Assembly: GCA_030603385.1 (NCBI GenBank)
Contig: JAUVXW010000014.1
Location: 17,402-81,401, forward strand
Length of the DNA: 64,000 nt
From: Promethearchaeota archaeon
GTDB lineage: Archaea; Asgardarchaeota; Lokiarchaeia; Sigyniarchaeales; SOKP01
Direction: 5' to 3'
In this document: piece after piece, positions 8,561 through 33,094 of the stretch
Layout: every line of letters begins with the position of its first letter
Numbering within the stretch: the stretch's first letter is position 1
Position numbers and translations under genes: made by a program
Notes under the pieces: model-generated
The model's input: the letters and a program-made list of their open reading frames with translations, nothing else
Databases searched by the model: none
Told to the model about the DNA's origin: nothing

Positions 8561-9088
8561 TTAAGAGTTTTGCTTTAACATTCGCCGAGTTAGTTCAATA
8601 AAAGCATTCTCAACATTATCGCCTGTTTTAGCAGAAGTTTCAATATAAATACTTTCTTCATTTTCAGCAAACTTCTTAGGTTTGTCCCTATTGATTACTT
8701 CACCGACTTCAGGGAGTAAATCAGATTTATTCCCCAATATTATAATGGGAATCTTTTCTTCAAGTATACTACGCATATCTATAAGCCATTCTTTCATTTT
8801 GGGAAATGTATTTGCTCTTGAAAGGTCAAAAACTAATAGTGCTCCATGGGCTCCTTCATAAAAACTACGACGTAGGATTTTGAAACGTTCTTGGCCACCC
8901 ACATCCCAAATAGAAAGTTTTGCGATTTTATCTTTTTCAAATTTTACTGTTTTAGCTAAAAAGTCTACACCTATAGTGAATTTATAACTTGTTGAGAATT
9001 GATCCTCTACGAATCTTCTGATGAGACTAGTTTTGCCAACCGCGGAAGGACCTATTATTAAACACTTAAATGTAAAATCCGCAGTCAT
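8561..9088 (-). CDS. Rab-like small GTPase (second tandem paralog)
   Basis: GPSAVGKTS, TIGVDF, KLSIWDVGGQERF, NKSD, ETSAK; likely start ATG 9088 (ORF track extends to 9133). Confidence 0.92.
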   Translation of the reverse strand: MTADFTFKCLIIGPSAVGKTSLIRRFVEDQFSTSYKFTIGVDFLAKTVKFEKDKIAKLSIWDVGGQERFKILRRSFYEGAHGALLVFDLSRANTFPKMKEWLIDMRSILEEKIPIIILGNKSDLLPEVGEVINRDKPKKFAENEESIYIETSAKTGDNVENAFIELTRRMLKQNS

Positions 9089-9151
9089 TATTAGATGAGT
9101 TTGATTTTTTTTAAAAATTAAATTATAAAACAATAATTGGTTGTTTCTTTA

Positions 9152-10046: not shown

Positions 10047-10424
10047 ATGGAGTATATTATCATTGAAAATGAAAAAATTGGTCAAATGAAAGCAAAATTG
10101 CTCACCGATAAGAATCCTAAGACATGTGAAGCAATTTGGAACGCATTACCCTTTGAAGTTAATCTATCAAGATGGGGAGAAGAATTGTATGGGGAAATCC
10201 CTGTTTCATTAGAAGAAGAAAATTCCCAAGTTGATTGTGAGGTAGGAGATATTGGTTATTGGCCTAGTGGAAAAGGATTTTGTATCTTTTTTGGTCCTAC
10301 GCCTGCTAGTAAAGGAGATAAACCAAAAGCAGCTTCTCCAGTAAATATATTCGCTAGAGTTGACGGAGATGCTAAAATATTTAACCAATTTTCATCTTTT
10401 AAAGGGCAAGTAAAAAGAGGTTAA
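10047..10424 (+). CDS. Cyclophilin-like fold protein (DUF369/TM1367-like)
   Basis: NPKTCEAIWNALP, WGEELY, GDIGYWPSGKGFCIFFGPTPAS, ASPVN. Confidence 0.8.
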   Translation: MEYIIIENEKIGQMKAKLLTDKNPKTCEAIWNALPFEVNLSRWGEELYGEIPVSLEEENSQVDCEVGDIGYWPSGKGFCIFFGPTPASKGDKPKAASPVNIFARVDGDAKIFNQFSSFKGQVKRG

Positions 10425-10474
10425 TTAAAAATCTTACTCGTCTATAAAAACGTAGCTTTATCTACTATTTTTCT

Positions 10475-10792
10475 CTATATTTTATTGTATTTCTTTAAGA
10501 TTTTTTCGATTTCTAATTCTGCTTCAGAAATTTTGTAGTTCAAAGTAACATTCCTTTTTTTTAATTCATCGAACATCTCCCATATGGAAATTCCAGCAAT
10601 TTCGGATGCTTTTCCAAGGGAGATTTTATCTTTAAGATATTCTTTTAAAGCAAATTCTAACTTTTCTTGAGCGATGCTTTTCCATAATAATTTTCTTATA
10701 AAACTGGATTGATCTTCTTTATATAGTTCCCGTAATTTGTCAATCTCTTCTTTCAAATCATCTGGTAGAACAATAGAAATTTTATCTCCCAT
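10475..10792 (-). CDS. UPF0175 family antitoxin-like protein
   Basis: RHH-like N-terminus (ISIVLPDDL) and ISLGKASEIAGISIWEM...LKKR; likely start ATG 10792. Confidence 0.8.
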   Translation of the reverse strand: MGDKISIVLPDDLKEEIDKLRELYKEDQSSFIRKLLWKSIAQEKLEFALKEYLKDKISLGKASEIAGISIWEMFDELKKRNVTLNYKISEAELEIEKILKKYNKI

Positions 10793-10871
10793 ATTTTTCA
10801 CCTTTTTCAATATACTCTTGGATTACATCTGCTGAAATCCAACTATTTTAATGAATATTACTTATTAATTC
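10782..10871 (-). pseudogene. C-terminal remnant of a DUF3368/PIN-type toxin
   Basis: Reads ELISNIH*NSWISADVIQEYIEKGEKYGR* and overlaps the UPF0175 start. WIS...I is typical of the DUF3368 C-terminus. It is truncated at the TTCGTGAAA site. Confidence 0.5.
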
Positions 10872-10961
10872 TTCGTGAAAGGTCTGCTAAAGTACGAGAA
10901 AGGTATAAATTTATACTTCTTAATAAAAGTTCATGAAATAATATCTTGATATTTATAACAT

Positions 10962-10985
10962 ATCGTGAAATCCACCTTTCACGAT
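10962..10985. repeat. Perfect 9-6-9 inverted repeat ATCGTGAAA-TCCACC-TTTCACGAT (dif/Xer-like architecture)
   Basis: Read directly. The arms match those at 10872-10880 and 11545-11553. Confidence 0.75.
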
Positions 10986-11036
10986 CAATTATCAATTAAT
11001 TATCATTGAAAAAAAGATTTACTATCAGACTCTTTT

Positions 11037-11540
11037 ATGTTAAATACGAGTGTCAAAAAATATATTATTATGGAAGACGAAAATATTGAGATTTTCAAAG
11101 ACTTTGTAATAGGATTAAATAAAAGGAATAAACTTAAACAATGTACTAAATGTACAAGAACTTTTTCTATAACATCTGAATTTTTCTACAGAAATAGAAC
11201 TACTAAAGATGGTCTTGATTCTTGGTGTAAAGAATGTAAAAAGGAATATGATAAATATCATTATCAGTATAAAAGATATAACATAACAAAGGAGGATTAT
11301 GAGAATATGATGGAAGGGCAGAATGGGAAATGTCTCATATGTGGAAGGAATTTTGATAAAATATATTTTCCACAAAACACACATATTGATCACGATCATA
11401 GGACAGGAAAAGTTAGAGGTCTTCTATGTAATAACTGCAACGTAATATTAGGGAATGCTTTTGATAATCCTCTCATTTTAATTAAGGCAATTAAATACTT
11501 ACAAGAGAATAAGAAAAAAAGAAATAAAAAATCCATATAG
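11037..11540 (+). CDS. Recombination endonuclease VII (HNH-like) domain protein
   Basis: N-terminal CxxC...CxxC (KQCTKC...WCKEC); QNGKCLICG, HIDHDHRTGKVRGLLCNNCNVILG. Confidence 0.88.
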   Translation: MLNTSVKKYIIMEDENIEIFKDFVIGLNKRNKLKQCTKCTRTFSITSEFFYRNRTTKDGLDSWCKECKKEYDKYHYQYKRYNITKEDYENMMEGQNGKCLICGRNFDKIYFPQNTHIDHDHRTGKVRGLLCNNCNVILGNAFDNPLILIKAIKYLQENKKKRNKKSI

Positions 11541-11567
11541 TCTGTTTCACGAACATATATATTTTTT

Positions 11568-11948
11568 TTATAAGTTTAAATATGATTTTACTATTTTAAT
11601 AGTAGTTTCAGCTAGATCTAATGCATCATTAGCAGATTTTTTATTGAAAACTTCAGCAGGTATTCCTTCTGGAAGTCCATTAGGGTATCTAGTCGGAATA
11701 TAATAACTATCTAAGATAGATACATCTTCGCCTAATTTTGTAAACTTTTTATCGAAAGTACCAGCCCAATCTGCTAATTTCTTAACTGAATGTCCTAGAA
11801 CAAGATCCTCTTTATTAAAATAAATTACAGATTTTAAAGCTTTTTCAACAATTTGTTGAGATATAAAACAAACAAGATAATAGCGTTCATTTTCAAATAG
11901 AATTTAGAATCTATTTGCTTCCTTAGAATATTTACTTATTTCGCTCAT
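11568..11948 (-). pseudogene. HEPN domain protein with premature stop
   Basis: Manual translation: MSEISKYSKEANRF*ILFENERYYLVCFISQQIVEKALKS...GHSVKKL...LDSYYIPTRYP...; TAA at codon 15 with an apparent short deletion; overlaps the MNT stop. Confidence 0.8.
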
Positions 11949-12279
11949 AAATGACCTTTCCTTCTTTTAATATATGTTGAATAAATAAATTTTCTCCTGC
12001 CATGCGTTTAAACTCAATTGGGGTATAGATGAGTAAATCAATTTCTTTAGGTTTTACTTTTTTATAAATTTCTGCTGATCTTTCTATAAAGTCTAGCTTA
12101 GATTCAATTATTATAATTAAATCAATATCACTTGTTAAACTTAATTCCTCTCTAACAGATGATCCAAATTGAATAATTTTTAAAGCGCCCAATTTAATTA
12201 ATTCAGAGATGACACGGTTTAATTCTTGTTTTAGCTCTTTTAAATGCTTTTTCTTAAGCATTTTAACTTTTTGGATCAT
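11932..12279 (-). CDS. Minimal nucleotidyltransferase (MNT) antitoxin
   Basis: FGSSVREELSLTSDIDLIII, IDLLIYTP.EF, EGKVIYE. Confidence 0.85.
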   Translation of the reverse strand: MIQKVKMLKKKHLKELKQELNRVISELIKLGALKIIQFGSSVREELSLTSDIDLIIIIESKLDFIERSAEIYKKVKPKEIDLLIYTPIEFKRMAGENLFIQHILKEGKVIYERNK

Positions 12280-12400
12280 TATTGTATAAATATTTATTAG
12301 TCTTATTAAATTAAATGTAAGAATTCTAAATCATAAAGGTTCTAAATATAAATACTATTGCATGATATAGAAATTCACATCTAATCAAAATAATTTTATG

Positions 12401-12443
12401 CGGGAAAAATTAAAATAATCTGAATTATTTTAAACGGGAAAAA
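12401..12443. promoter_or_regulatory. Candidate operator upstream of gabT
   Basis: TTAAAATAAT-CTGA-ATTATTTTAA palindrome (12410-12433) flanked by CGGGAAAAA direct repeats (12401, 12435). Confidence 0.4.
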
Positions 12444-12464
12444 ATTATAAAAGGAGTAGAAATC

Positions 12465-13727
12465 ATGAAAAAGAATGAAAATCTGCTTGAATTAAGAAAA
12501 CAATATGTCCCAAAGGCTGTTTACAATACTTTTCCATCCTTTATCAGTCAAGCAAATGGTGCTAAAATGACTGATATAGAGGGTTATGAAATGATTGATT
12601 TTGCAGGGGGCATAGCTACAGTCAATGTAGGTCATTGTCATCCCAAAGTTGTAAGTGCTATTAAAGATCAGGCTGAAAAGTACATCCATACATGCTTTCA
12701 TGTAGCAATGTATGAACCATATATAGAGTTAGCACAAAGACTTTGTGAAATTGCACCTGGGGATTTCCCTAAAATGGCTTTTTTTGCAAATAGTGGTGCT
12801 GAAGCTGTAGAAAATGCAATAAAAATTGCCAGATATTACACAAAACGTTCGGGTATAATTACTTTTGAAAATGCTTTCCACGGAAGGACACTTATGGGGA
12901 TGAGTCTAACAAGTAAAGTAAAACCATACAAATTAGGTTTTGGACCATTTGCTCCGGAGATTTATCGAATACCATTTGGTGATGCTAATTTATTCGAAAC
13001 ATTTCTTATAAACCACATTGCACCAGAATCCGTTGCAGCGATCATTGCAGAACCCGTTCAAGGTGAAGGTGGATTTATAACTCCCCCTCCAGAATTTTTC
13101 CCTAAGATTATCGAGATTTGTAAAGAAAATGGAATACTGTTTATTGCTGACGAAATTCAATCCGGGATGGGACGAACGGGAAAGATGTTCGCAATTGAAC
13201 ATTGGGATGTTGTACCTGATATTATTCTTCTAGCAAAGAGCTTAGCAGCAGGCTTACCTTTAAGTGCAATAATAGGACGGAAAGAAATTATGGATTCTCC
13301 TCACATTGGTGGGTTAGGAGGAACATTTGGTGGCAATCCCGTTGCTTGTAGAGCAGCTTTAGCCGTGTTAGACATATTTAAAGAGGAAAATTTATTACAT
13401 AAAGCTGAAATTTTAGGACAAAAATTAAATAAGCAAATTAAGACCTGGCAGAAAAATTTTGAAATTGTTGGAAACATTCATGGTATTGGATCAATGCTCG
13501 CCTTTGAGATAGTAGATACAAAGTCAAAAAAACCCGCAAAGGATAAAGCTAAGGAATTAATCGACTTATGCTATAAGAAGGGTTTAATAATTCTTACTTG
13601 TGGAAAATATGGAAACACTATAAGGTTGCTGATGCCCCTTGTAATAAATAATGATGAATTAGATAAAGGTCTTAAAATACTTGAAGAAAACCTTCAAATT
13701 TTAGAAAATAGGAGTTTGGAAATGTAA
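12465..13727 (+). CDS. gabT: 4-aminobutyrate/5-aminovalerate aminotransferase (class III PLP)
   Basis: IDFAGGIATVNVGH, NSGAEAVENAIK, FHGRT, EPVQGEGG, DEIQSGMGRTG, AKSLAAG, GGTFGGNP. Confidence 0.8.
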   Translation: MKKNENLLELRKQYVPKAVYNTFPSFISQANGAKMTDIEGYEMIDFAGGIATVNVGHCHPKVVSAIKDQAEKYIHTCFHVAMYEPYIELAQRLCEIAPGDFPKMAFFANSGAEAVENAIKIARYYTKRSGIITFENAFHGRTLMGMSLTSKVKPYKLGFGPFAPEIYRIPFGDANLFETFLINHIAPESVAAIIAEPVQGEGGFITPPPEFFPKIIEICKENGILFIADEIQSGMGRTGKMFAIEHWDVVPDIILLAKSLAAGLPLSAIIGRKEIMDSPHIGGLGGTFGGNPVACRAALAVLDIFKEENLLHKAEILGQKLNKQIKTWQKNFEIVGNIHGIGSMLAFEIVDTKSKKPAKDKAKELIDLCYKKGLIILTCGKYGNTIRLLMPLVINNDELDKGLKILEENLQILENRSLEM

Positions 13728-31898: not shown

Positions 31899-33094
31899 AA
31901 AATTCTATGGTTCGGCCATTGGAAGGGATAAAAGTTTTGGATTTATCAAGGGCTTTAGCTGGTCCTTATTGTACAATGATGCTAGCAGATATGGGTGCAG
32001 AAGTAATAAAAATTGAAATACCTGAAAGAGGCGATGATTCTCGAGCATGGGGTCCTCCATTTATCGAAGGAGAAAGCGCCTATTTTATAAGTGTTAATCG
32101 AAACAAAAAGTCCATGACTTTAAACTTAAAGAAGGAGAAATCCGTAGAGATTATTCATAGATTAATTAAACAAGCTGATGTTTTGATTGAAAACTTTCGT
32201 CCTGGTACAATGGAAAAGTTGAGTTTATCCTATGATGAAGTAAAAGAGATAAACCCAAAGATTATATATTGTAGCATATCTGGGTTTGGTCAAGATGGTC
32301 CGTATCGGTTATTGCCTGGTATGGATCAAGTTCTTCAAGGAATGGGTGGATTGATGAGCATTACAGGTGAACCTGATGGTCCTCCCATCAAGGTTGGAGT
32401 AGCTGTTGCCGATATTGCCGGTGGAATGTTCGCGGCATATGGGATAGTAGTAGCACTTTTTAATAGAGAAACGGGCGGTAAAGGACAGATGATTGATCTA
32501 AGTTTGTTAGACTGTCAAGTAGCTTGGTTAACCTATCGAGCTGGTTCTTTCTTTGCATCAGGAGAAATTCCAAAACCATTAGGCTCTGGTCACCCTGTTA
32601 TTGTTCCTTACCAAGCATTTAAAGCTAAAGATGTATATGTTAATGTTGCTGCTGGTAATGATCAATTATGGCAAAAATTTTGTAAAGCTCTTGGATTGGA
32701 AAATATAATGAATGAACAGCGATTTGCTACAAATGCTATGCGGGTTAAAAATAGGGAAGAAATAATTGAAATTATCGGAGATGTAATTTGCACTAAAAAA
32801 GCTGATGAATGGCTTAAAATCTTGACTGAAGCGGGGGTACCATGTGGTCCTATCTATAATATGGATAAGATTTTTAGTGACCCTCAAGTATTACACAGGG
32901 AAATGGTAAAGGAACTTGAACATCCGACAGCAGGAAAAGTCAAAGTAACTGGAATTCCAATCAAATTATCTAATACACCTGGAGAAATCCTCAAAGCACC
33001 ACCAGTTTTAGGACAACATACAAAAGAAATCCTCTCTGAATTAGGATTTAAAGAAATTGAAATTGAGAAATTGTATGAGGAAAAAGTAATTTAA
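31895..33094 (+). CDS. CaiB/BaiF family III CoA-transferase
   Basis: LDLSRALAGPYCTMMLADMGAEVIKIE, NRNKKS, ENFRPG, SISGFGQDGPY, D..LQGMGGLMSITG. Confidence 0.9.
   Translation: MKNSMVRPLEGIKVLDLSRALAGPYCTMMLADMGAEVIKIEIPERGDDSRAWGPPFIEGESAYFISVNRNKKSMTLNLKKEKSVEIIHRLIKQADVLIENFRPGTMEKLSLSYDEVKEINPKIIYCSISGFGQDGPYRLLPGMDQVLQGMGGLMSITGEPDGPPIKVGVAVADIAGGMFAAYGIVVALFNRETGGKGQMIDLSLLDCQVAWLTYRAGSFFASGEIPKPLGSGHPVIVPYQAFKAKDVYVNVAAGNDQLWQKFCKALGLENIMNEQRFATNAMRVKNREEIIEIIGDVICTKKADEWLKILTEAGVPCGPIYNMDKIFSDPQVLHREMVKELEHPTAGKVKVTGIPIKLSNTPGEILKAPPVLGQHTKEILSELGFKEIEIEKLYEEKVI

Follow-up and report, generated by a model that had tools for sequence, protein, structure and literature searches.

A predicted endonuclease VII-family gene lies within the spacer of a conserved chromosomal palindrome in an Asgard archaeon

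How does a gene come to lie between the two halves of a short palindrome that related genomes keep undivided? The question is raised by a 64,000-nt stretch of a Promethearchaeota archaeon assembly (GCA_030603385.1, contig JAUVXW010000014.1, positions 17,402–81,401 of the forward strand), termed the window in the following. Here, a cassette with a single gene, predicted to encode an endonuclease VII-family nuclease, sits in the 6-bp spacer of the conserved chromosomal palindrome NCGTGAAA-GGTCTG-TTTCACGA. We regard the cassette as likely to be a free-standing element of a homing-endonuclease-like kind whose dimeric nuclease cuts this spacer. The source assembly (3.89 Mb, 58 contigs) is designated G000, other G numbers denote genomes of relatives, and L numbers denote extracted loci or contigs. 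The left and right arms of the palindrome are called L arm and R arm, and an arm together with spacer bases is called L-half or R-half.

A palindrome split by insertion

The two halves of the 22-bp palindrome are separated by 658 bp (10887–11544). The left half retains the entire spacer, and on the right AGTCTG (11539–11544) directly precedes the arm TTTCACGAA. GTCTG, five of the six spacer bases, is thus present on both sides (Table 1). The octamer TCGTGAAA occurs seven times in the window against 1.9 expected, a number reached in none of 100 shuffles, and four of these copies fall within 10873–11552; this clustering is not due to chance.

Relatives hold the empty site. In G004, an intact TCTTGAAA-GGTCTG-TTTCACGA lies between orthologous cyclophilin-like and aminotransferase genes with other cargo alongside, while in G016 and G049 the intact site is followed by the window's own right flank, the homology to the G016 site and flank beginning at 11542. 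G019 has the same site filled at 97% identity, without the toxin–antitoxin (TA) neighbours of the window and with homology that begins exactly at the left arm. Related cassette copies occupy GGTCTG sites in another flank context in G012, G043, and G007, and the matching intact site is found in G056. The left arm of G012 adjoins the internal spacer directly, a fusion most simply explained by a deletion between direct arms.

The original prediction, made from the letters of the window, had described the outer halves, an intact TCCACC palindrome between them, and degenerate arms at 10893 and 10930, and all of these motifs are present where it placed them. Its reading of the outer half-sites as one palindrome, split by an insertion that duplicated the core, is borne out by the empty sites of G004, G016, and G049, and the insert does carry a spare intact palindrome. 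The arm-N6-arm motif, empty alleles, and different cargo were all found among the relatives. The prediction also spoke of an integrase-less cassette: it rightly noted that there is no integrase, but overlooked the nuclease that the cassette itself encodes, which belongs to the family of F-CphI and Hpy99I.

Three further events show the same pattern. The first, in G020/G015, reads TCGTGAAA-GTTGAG/cassette/TTGAG-TTTCACGA, and G003 carries an intact GTTGAG site with both flanks orthologous to this event (79% and 74% over ~2 kb each), the right flank also being matched by G006. Between TFS and rpS27e, L121/L122 read TCGTGAAA-GTTCA/cassette/GTTCAG-TTTCACGA; the TFS/rpS27e locus is intact in G000, and intact GTTCAG palindromes are present there in G017 and G064. 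The metagenome contig L119 reads TTCGTGAAA-TAACCG/two tandem nuclease genes/AACCG-TTTCACGAA and is known by its junctions, so that intact-site alleles are available for the window event and two of the three others. All four inserts carry one or more Endonuclease_7 genes and nothing else. In each of them, one spacer base, the one abutting the cassette, is unmatched and the other five are repeated, the duplication covering spacer positions 2–6 in three events and 1–5 in one. A symmetric 4-bp duplication extended by a chance base was rejected because the coincidence would be needed in all four events. Likewise, we rejected the view that the empty sites are deletion footprints of the element, since intact sites are near-universal at conserved loci and the gene is rare.

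The presence of the nuclease gene goes along with the absence of the intact site. The gene occurs in 13 of the 54 genomes of the genus, with 36–98% identity and with stops in several copies. None of the five clade 1 carriers retains an intact GGTCTG site, compared to about 35 of the 49 other genomes (hypergeometric p about 0.004). A genus-wide search for broken GGTCTG halves that made no use of the gene detected split L-halves only in G000 and G019, and the A-GTCTG R-halves that it retrieved were confined to G000, G019, and G043; all of these adjoin the nuclease gene. In clade 2, the proteins of G020 and L121 share 81% identity yet are encoded at different loci, which shows that sites have been switched. 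G000 and G012 share 88% identity in the nuclease DNA versus 68–72% in the flanking host genes, a contrast that hints at transfer between species. Within G000, a scan for further split palindromes (L-arm+N6…N5+R-arm) returned 40 matches against ~18 expected. Beyond the window site, four GC-rich candidates (on C13, C18, C47, and a second one on C25) were inspected and rejected, at least one arm lying within a gene, and the remaining candidates, with AT-rich 5-mers, were taken as chance. No other copies of the cassette or its gene were found in G000.

The target belongs to a family of chromosomal palindromes. Across the G000 assembly, which holds 164 half-sites, TCGTGAAA-N6-TTTCACGA occurs seven times exactly and twice with one mismatch, and no pairs were found at any other spacing from 0 to 12 or in everted or reversed controls. 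The nine sites lie on nine contigs and have nine different spacers; all are intergenic, and three are between convergent genes, for instance rpS27e/TFS. We found no common regulon or function of the flanking genes. Exact sites, two to eight per genome, are carried by all 24 genus genomes that were scanned (controls 0), and beyond the genus such sites are limited to two other genera. The same spacers recur over species, at conserved loci that include rpS27e/TFS and a position beside a tRNA gene. When the GATGCG, TCATCG, and CCATCC families were aligned, palindrome and spacer proved unchanged while the flanks are barely alignable or mosaic; the sole exception, the CCATAG spacer of G000, is of doubtful orthology. 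A GGTCTG-type site is present once per genome in about 36 of the 54 genomes and usually adjoins a 282-aa gene, with a TATA-like box always directly before its L arm.

In each genome, about ten palindromes have the arms in common; their spacers are locus-specific and constant over nearly all species compared, and the intergenic DNA around them is otherwise unalignable (e.g., G000 C18:56491, C11:7527, C4:232408). In several genomes, the site of the CCATCC family (L071–L074, from G023, G006, G003, and G024) is found ~45 bp past a tRNA gene's 3′ end. A position just past a tRNA gene is typical of integration sites.

The nuclease and its cassette

The insert consists almost wholly of one open reading frame (ORF) on the + strand (11037/11070–11540), the TAG stop of which (11538–11540) overlaps the duplication. 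Of its two candidate start codons, ATG 11070 (156 aa) is the likelier one because G019 has CTG at the position of the first ATG and the homologues begin later. By profile, sequence, and modelled structure, the predicted protein is a member of the endonuclease VII family. Pfam Endonuclease_7 (PF02945) is matched with 85 bits (cut-off 23.6) from position 5 to position 81 of its 82-position profile, and PHROG 2633 (“endonuclease VII”) is matched over its full length at 2.4e-36. In the PDB sequence search, T4 endonuclease VII (2.7e-10) and Hpy99I (1.2e-8) were retrieved. Twelve Cys, Asp, His, and Asn positions are invariant across 30 homologues and make up two CXXC…CXXC zinc sites and a D-H..H..N catalytic set; those that align to the catalytic region of T4 endonuclease VII are D107, H108, H110, N124, C88, C91, C120, and C123. 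The AlphaFold model has a mean pLDDT of 83.7, and its best Foldseek match is Hpy99I (E 1e-5, 134 columns, both zinc repeats), followed by T4 endonuclease VII.

The protein is also predicted to dimerize. The homodimer model scored 0.74, the best of three controls 0.00, with runs agreeing in at least 97% of contacts and a partner pLDDT of at least 81; the mark that it passed is also reached by 20 of 30 proteins whose solved structure is a pair of one chain, but by just 1 of 23 whose solved structure is a single chain. The modelled interface is symmetric and formed via the catalytic domain and the C-terminal helix. As the dimers of T4 endonuclease VII and Hpy99I have been solved, this pass may reflect likeness to them. 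Some loci carry two different Endonuclease_7 genes in tandem with a 4-bp overlap (L119:2501–3369, L123:141–1099, L118:2271–2995), and such pairs may represent a heterodimeric variant.

Upstream of the gene, the cassette contains a TATA-like box followed by an intact internal palindrome, a layout shared by G019, G043, G012, G007, L116, and L117. This module mirrors the chromosomal GGTCTG module and is likely the promoter/operator of the nuclease gene. Closer to the left end, degenerate direct half-sites precede it (Table 1), the one at 10930 being a perfect TCGTGAAA in G043, and elements of clades 1 and 2 are homologous at their left end (GGTAT..TTTATACTT block). Of the perfect 14-bp palindrome GTATAAATTTATAC at 10903–10916, part is conserved in the G020 element, which belongs to clade 2.

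The cassette ends themselves are not arm-like: by eye, the window junction sequences CTAAAGTAC and AATCCATAT match the arms at only three and one of nine positions, respectively. No terminal inverted repeats were found at the cassette ends in the four events, and Endonuclease_7 is their sole gene type, so the element does not qualify as an insertion sequence (IS) or DDE transposon; the fixed short duplication is the one trait it has in common with these. Further, there is no methylase in the cassette and no cognate methyltransferase beside the gene, as a type II restriction–modification system would have, the neighbours being UPF0175/RHH and MNT/HEPN genes.

Table 1. Positions of the split palindrome, the inserted cassette, and the adjacent genes within the window.
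Feature	Position	Strand	Evidence
Left half of target palindrome: arm TTCGTGAAA (10872–10880) and full 6-bp spacer GGTCTG (10881–10886)	10872–10886	no strand	Sequence reading; G019 homology begins exactly there
Inserted cassette proper, 653 bp, without terminal inverted repeats or arm-like ends	10887–11539	+	Comparison of filled and empty sites
Left-end region: degenerate direct L-type half-sites TACGAGAAA (10893–10901) and TTCATGAAA (10930–10938); 14-bp palindrome GTATAAATTTATAC	10893–10938	+	Sequence reading
TATA-like box (10950–10958), then intact internal palindrome ATCGTGAAA-TCCACC-TTTCACGAT (10962–10985)	10950–10985	+	Sequence reading; layout in relatives
Predicted endonuclease VII-family gene (His-Me finger, two Zn-ribbon repeats), 167 aa from ATG 11037	11037–11540	+	Pfam, PHROG, PDB sequence search, Foldseek
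Right half of target palindrome: duplicated GTCTG (11540–11544) and arm TTTCACGAA (11545–11553)	11540–11553	no strand	Sequence reading; comparison with G016 and G049
Left neighbour, UPF0175/RHH antitoxin-like gene, outside the cassette, absent in G019	10475–10810	-	Pfam; comparison with G019
Right neighbours, outside the cassette: HEPN gene (11568–11945) and MNT nucleotidyltransferase (11932–12279)	11568–12279	-	Pfam; stop-to-stop ORFs; G016 homology

The MNT/HEPN pair is common to the window and G016, where it adjoins the intact palindrome. In the window, the HEPN toxin gene is broken by an in-frame stop after MSEISKYSKEANRF, where the reading frame of the G016 homologue continues. No arm-like sequences were found at the outer ends of the TA modules next to the cassette, no known RNA family was detected in 10400–12500 at E≤1, and a literature search for the arm sequence returned only unrelated primers and similar entries. 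Elsewhere in G000, just downstream of a thermosome-like gene, an ORF of 621 aa (C13:30860–32725) has an N-terminus that looks GIY-YIG-like by eye; it may be another free-standing nuclease gene. Ras-family small GTPase genes, including a tandem pair with long N-terminal extensions, were seen at 8561–9133 of the window and on G000 C31 (L009:1848–4081); they fit an Asgard archaeon, and one nuclease homologue is labelled Candidatus Hermodarchaeota by NCBI.

Proposed mechanism and competing readings

In the reading that we favour, the stretch 10887–11544 would be a compact, site-specific selfish cassette, in which ~150 bp of regulatory DNA are followed by one nuclease gene. The predicted nuclease dimer would bind both arms, read at least part of the spacer, and cut the two strands 5 nt apart, like Hpy99I. 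A dimer with a 5-nt stagger cannot centre on a 6-bp spacer and would sit half a base pair to either side of it; such an off-centre cut in two registers could explain both the odd 5-bp length of the duplication and the occurrence of both registers. Joining of the cassette into the break, whether by host ligation and repair or otherwise, and filling of the overhangs would then produce the 5-bp duplication and destroy the target, thereby rendering the carrier immune. Later spread between species into the same site may proceed by ordinary homing, that is by break repair from the filled allele. The internal palindrome, which has a different spacer, would probably serve as an operator, the protein repressing its own promoter without cutting, and each insertion would leave a new intact site within the insert. 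As the eight other G000 palindromes and the internal one are all intact, recognition of the spacer, or else tight repression of the enzyme, must be part of this scheme.

The distribution of the gene resembles that of a homing element. It is optional and patchy, and the intact target is present in non-carriers (G004, G016, G049, G056, G003, G006, G017, and G064) and in no clade 1 carrier. However, homing elements insert without target duplication, and a 5-bp duplication accompanies all four events. This implies that a site was first colonized by a route other than homology-directed repair, with repair-based spread possible later. We would class the element as a variant of the free-standing homing type: archaeal, chromosomal, and palindrome-targeted, with a target duplication and a spare site.

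Half-sites also occur in arrays elsewhere. On the G000 contig C43 (1–9500; L120), TA-like cassettes (PIN-like, two HEPN/MNT pairs, and others) lie between same-strand TTTCACGA arms. Eleven of these arms are exact and two have one or two mismatches, each following TAACCG or its complement CGGTTA; they are often paired ~135 bp apart, and the contig begins within the array. In G069 (C4:20000–59000; L126, L127) and G045 (C41:54000–66000; L128), L-halves on the left and R-halves on the right surround one intact palindrome, NCGTGAAA-TAACCG-TTTCACGA, at 32641 and 60120, respectively, the L-halves consisting of TCGTGAAA and TAACCG or CGGTTA. ATPase, TA, and other cassettes are located between the half-sites, and the G069 array contains a nuclease pseudogene. 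The TAACCG-R motif is present in 20 of the 54 genomes (control 0).

Several points weigh against the favoured reading. Unlike in the nuclease events, the half-sites of the arrays keep all six spacer bases around TA- and defence-like cassettes that lack a nuclease gene, and G045 and G002 have arrays but no nuclease gene at all. A lone TGTCTG-TTTCACGA half in G043 (C48:6158–6171; L134) has neither a recognizable left arm nor a nearby nuclease gene. Three of the four events were found via nuclease homologues, an ascertainment bias from which only the search of the GGTCTG family is free. The constant location of clade 1 in GGTCTG sites could reflect one old, vertically inherited insertion with rearranged flanks, and the nuclease could be cargo and not agent. 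His-Me nucleases act by hydrolysing DNA, and a joining activity is not known for them, so that the nuclease would not by itself account for the insertion step, and classical homing leaves no target duplication.

Among the alternatives, one with a modest chance of being right holds that the palindromes are core sites of a host-encoded, trans-acting recombinase and that the nuclease gene is one cargo among TA and defence cassettes, in the manner of integrons, pdif modules, or integrative mobile elements exploiting Xer (IMEX). Inverted arms of 8–9 bp around 6 bp fit the core sites of tyrosine recombinases, and a spacer that is constant per locus over species within mosaic flanks looks as if it had to match that of a partner. 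In conservative exchange, though, identical overlaps are needed, and only five of the six spacer bases are repeated in the four nuclease events; in the window, moreover, the cassette ends beside the duplicated core lack the resemblance to arms that such a site would have. Conservative insertion of a palindrome-bearing circle would further yield two full palindromes and not half-sites. The full 6-nt spacers around non-nuclease cassettes in the arrays of G069, G045, and G000 C43 speak for a recombinase, as do five PF00589 hits in G000; none of these hits is on the window's contig, no recombinase gene lies near the window site, and none of the array ORFs read by eye looked like a recombinase or integrase, with no family search or attC model run there. 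The original prediction had likewise envisaged a dif-module- or IMEX-like hotspot, exploited by integrase-less cassettes. Its hotspot stands, as variable genes abut the same site in G000, G004, G016, and G019, with TA modules in G000, GNAT-like and luciferase-like ORFs (by eye) in G004, and none in G019. The use of XerA or of an integrase finds no support, given armless junctions, a duplication of five of six bases, and PF00589 hits off the contig. In the GGTCTG family, the site is split by no cassettes other than those with the nuclease.

The arrays hint at a wider insertion platform. A broader version of the nuclease-based reading, which we put forward tentatively and hold to be doubtful, takes the palindrome family as a genus-wide platform for gene capture that works without a recombinase: nuclease cassettes would cut the spacer, insert, and build nested TA/defence islands. 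Repeated insertion could build such islands because each insert would bring a fresh intact palindrome, and the outcome would be the layout of G069, G045, and G000 C43, with L-halves to the left and R-halves to the right of a single live site. The simple mirrored order of half-sites expected from nested insertion fits G045 but not G069.

Far less probable is the view that the palindromes are transcription-factor operators, with the outer halves as extra operator halves of the nuclease gene and no insertion at all. The TATA-like box directly before the L arm, both at the GGTCTG sites and at the internal palindrome, and the several direct half-sites upstream of the nuclease gene would suit an operator. 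Yet intact alleles with orthologous flanks are known for three of the four events, and the 5-bp repeat stands beside both arms in all four with four different sequences. Three of the nine G000 sites are between convergent genes, and the flanking genes share no function. The original prediction would have been contradicted by a motif found mainly upstream of regulon genes; instead, the sites have no common gene context, though several are directly behind a TATA-like box. An operator role of the intact sites is compatible with the homing-like reading. Least credible is the suggestion, also from the original prediction, that the site is the Asgard chromosomal dif or the insert an IMEX using XerA, which has in its favour only the arm and 6-bp spacer geometry and a putative likeness of the arm to Xer/lox arms put forward in that prediction, but fails on copy number, as a dimer-resolution site must be unique per replicon while G000 has seven exact and two near-exact sites with differing spacers and each of 24 genus genomes has two to eight at conserved loci, and the cassette junctions carry no arm-like sequence.

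Comparison with known systems

IMEX and pdif modules are, like the cassette, small and without a recombinase gene, and they share an inverted-arm site with a 6-bp spacer and variable, often TA, cargo alongside. They differ in relying on XerC/D at dif-like sites carried at the element junction, with duplication of the whole overlap. In contrast, the site described here is multi-copy with locus-specific spacers, the junctions are armless, five of six bases are repeated, and the cassette encodes a nuclease. The arrays of C43, G069, and G045 resemble integron arrays in their rows of many promoter-poor TA/defence cassettes with a short conserved motif between them. Unlike in integrons, this motif is one half of a palindrome of 22 bp, with the halves oriented towards a single intact site in the centre; no IntI-like gene or attC structure was seen by eye, and no family or covariance-model search was run there. 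If these arrays are built by the same process, genomic islands in the closest prokaryotic relatives of eukaryotes would arise by a new route. Should the platform reading hold, defence islands would be assembled in a new way, by mobile elements of a new class: nuclease-driven, palindrome-targeted, and self-renewing.

With T4 endonuclease VII (gp49), the cassette protein shares the Pfam family, the catalytic Asp/His/Asn, the Zn ligands, and the symmetric dimer, which is a prediction here. The T4 enzyme, however, is a Holliday-junction resolvase that is specific for structure and not for sequence, functions in phage replication and packaging, and is not a mobile gene, and it lacks the extra N-terminal Zn repeat of the cassette protein.

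Hpy99I, a type II restriction endonuclease, forms a dimer, contains two β4-α2 zinc repeats, and leaves 3′ overhangs of 5 nt, a stagger described as rare by its authors (PMC2699513). It (PDB 3fc3) is the best structural match over 134 aligned columns, and its 5-nt stagger equals the length of the duplication here. Its extra N-terminal β-barrel, its 5-bp CGWCG recognition, and its adjacent methyltransferase set it apart from the cassette, which has no methylase neighbour, a 22-bp site, and a gene inserted in its own target. The duplication has the length that the cut geometry of a relative leads one to expect, and a spare target is carried along. The cassette nuclease is a candidate long-site (22-bp) His-Me nuclease with spacer specificity.

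The closest parallel in lifestyle is F-CphI, encoded by ORF177 of cyanophage S-PM2 and a member of the “DHHRN” family, in which the endonuclease VII motif occurs in a free-standing homing endonuclease; homing and restriction enzymes with this motif group apart from the resolvases (PMC6083498). Like the cassette nuclease, F-CphI is a free-standing optional gene with the catalytic motif of T4 endonuclease VII, it groups with restriction enzymes and not with resolvases, and its target is intact only in genomes without the gene, as observed here. In contrast to the cassette, it is a phage gene, cuts within psbA, a conserved gene for a protein, and spreads by break repair; a target duplication is not reported for it. 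The cassette is chromosomal and archaeal, targets an intergenic 22-bp palindrome with several spacer variants, is accompanied by a 5-bp duplication, and brings along an intact site of its own.

Most known homing endonuclease genes of the free-standing type come from phages and organelles and have conserved genes as their targets. The cassette would place a member of the endonuclease VII/Hpy99I branch on the chromosome of Asgard archaea, as an element that targets a short intergenic palindrome, and it exposes a feature of the host itself: about ten palindromes per genome with shared arms and a spacer that is invariant per locus over species.

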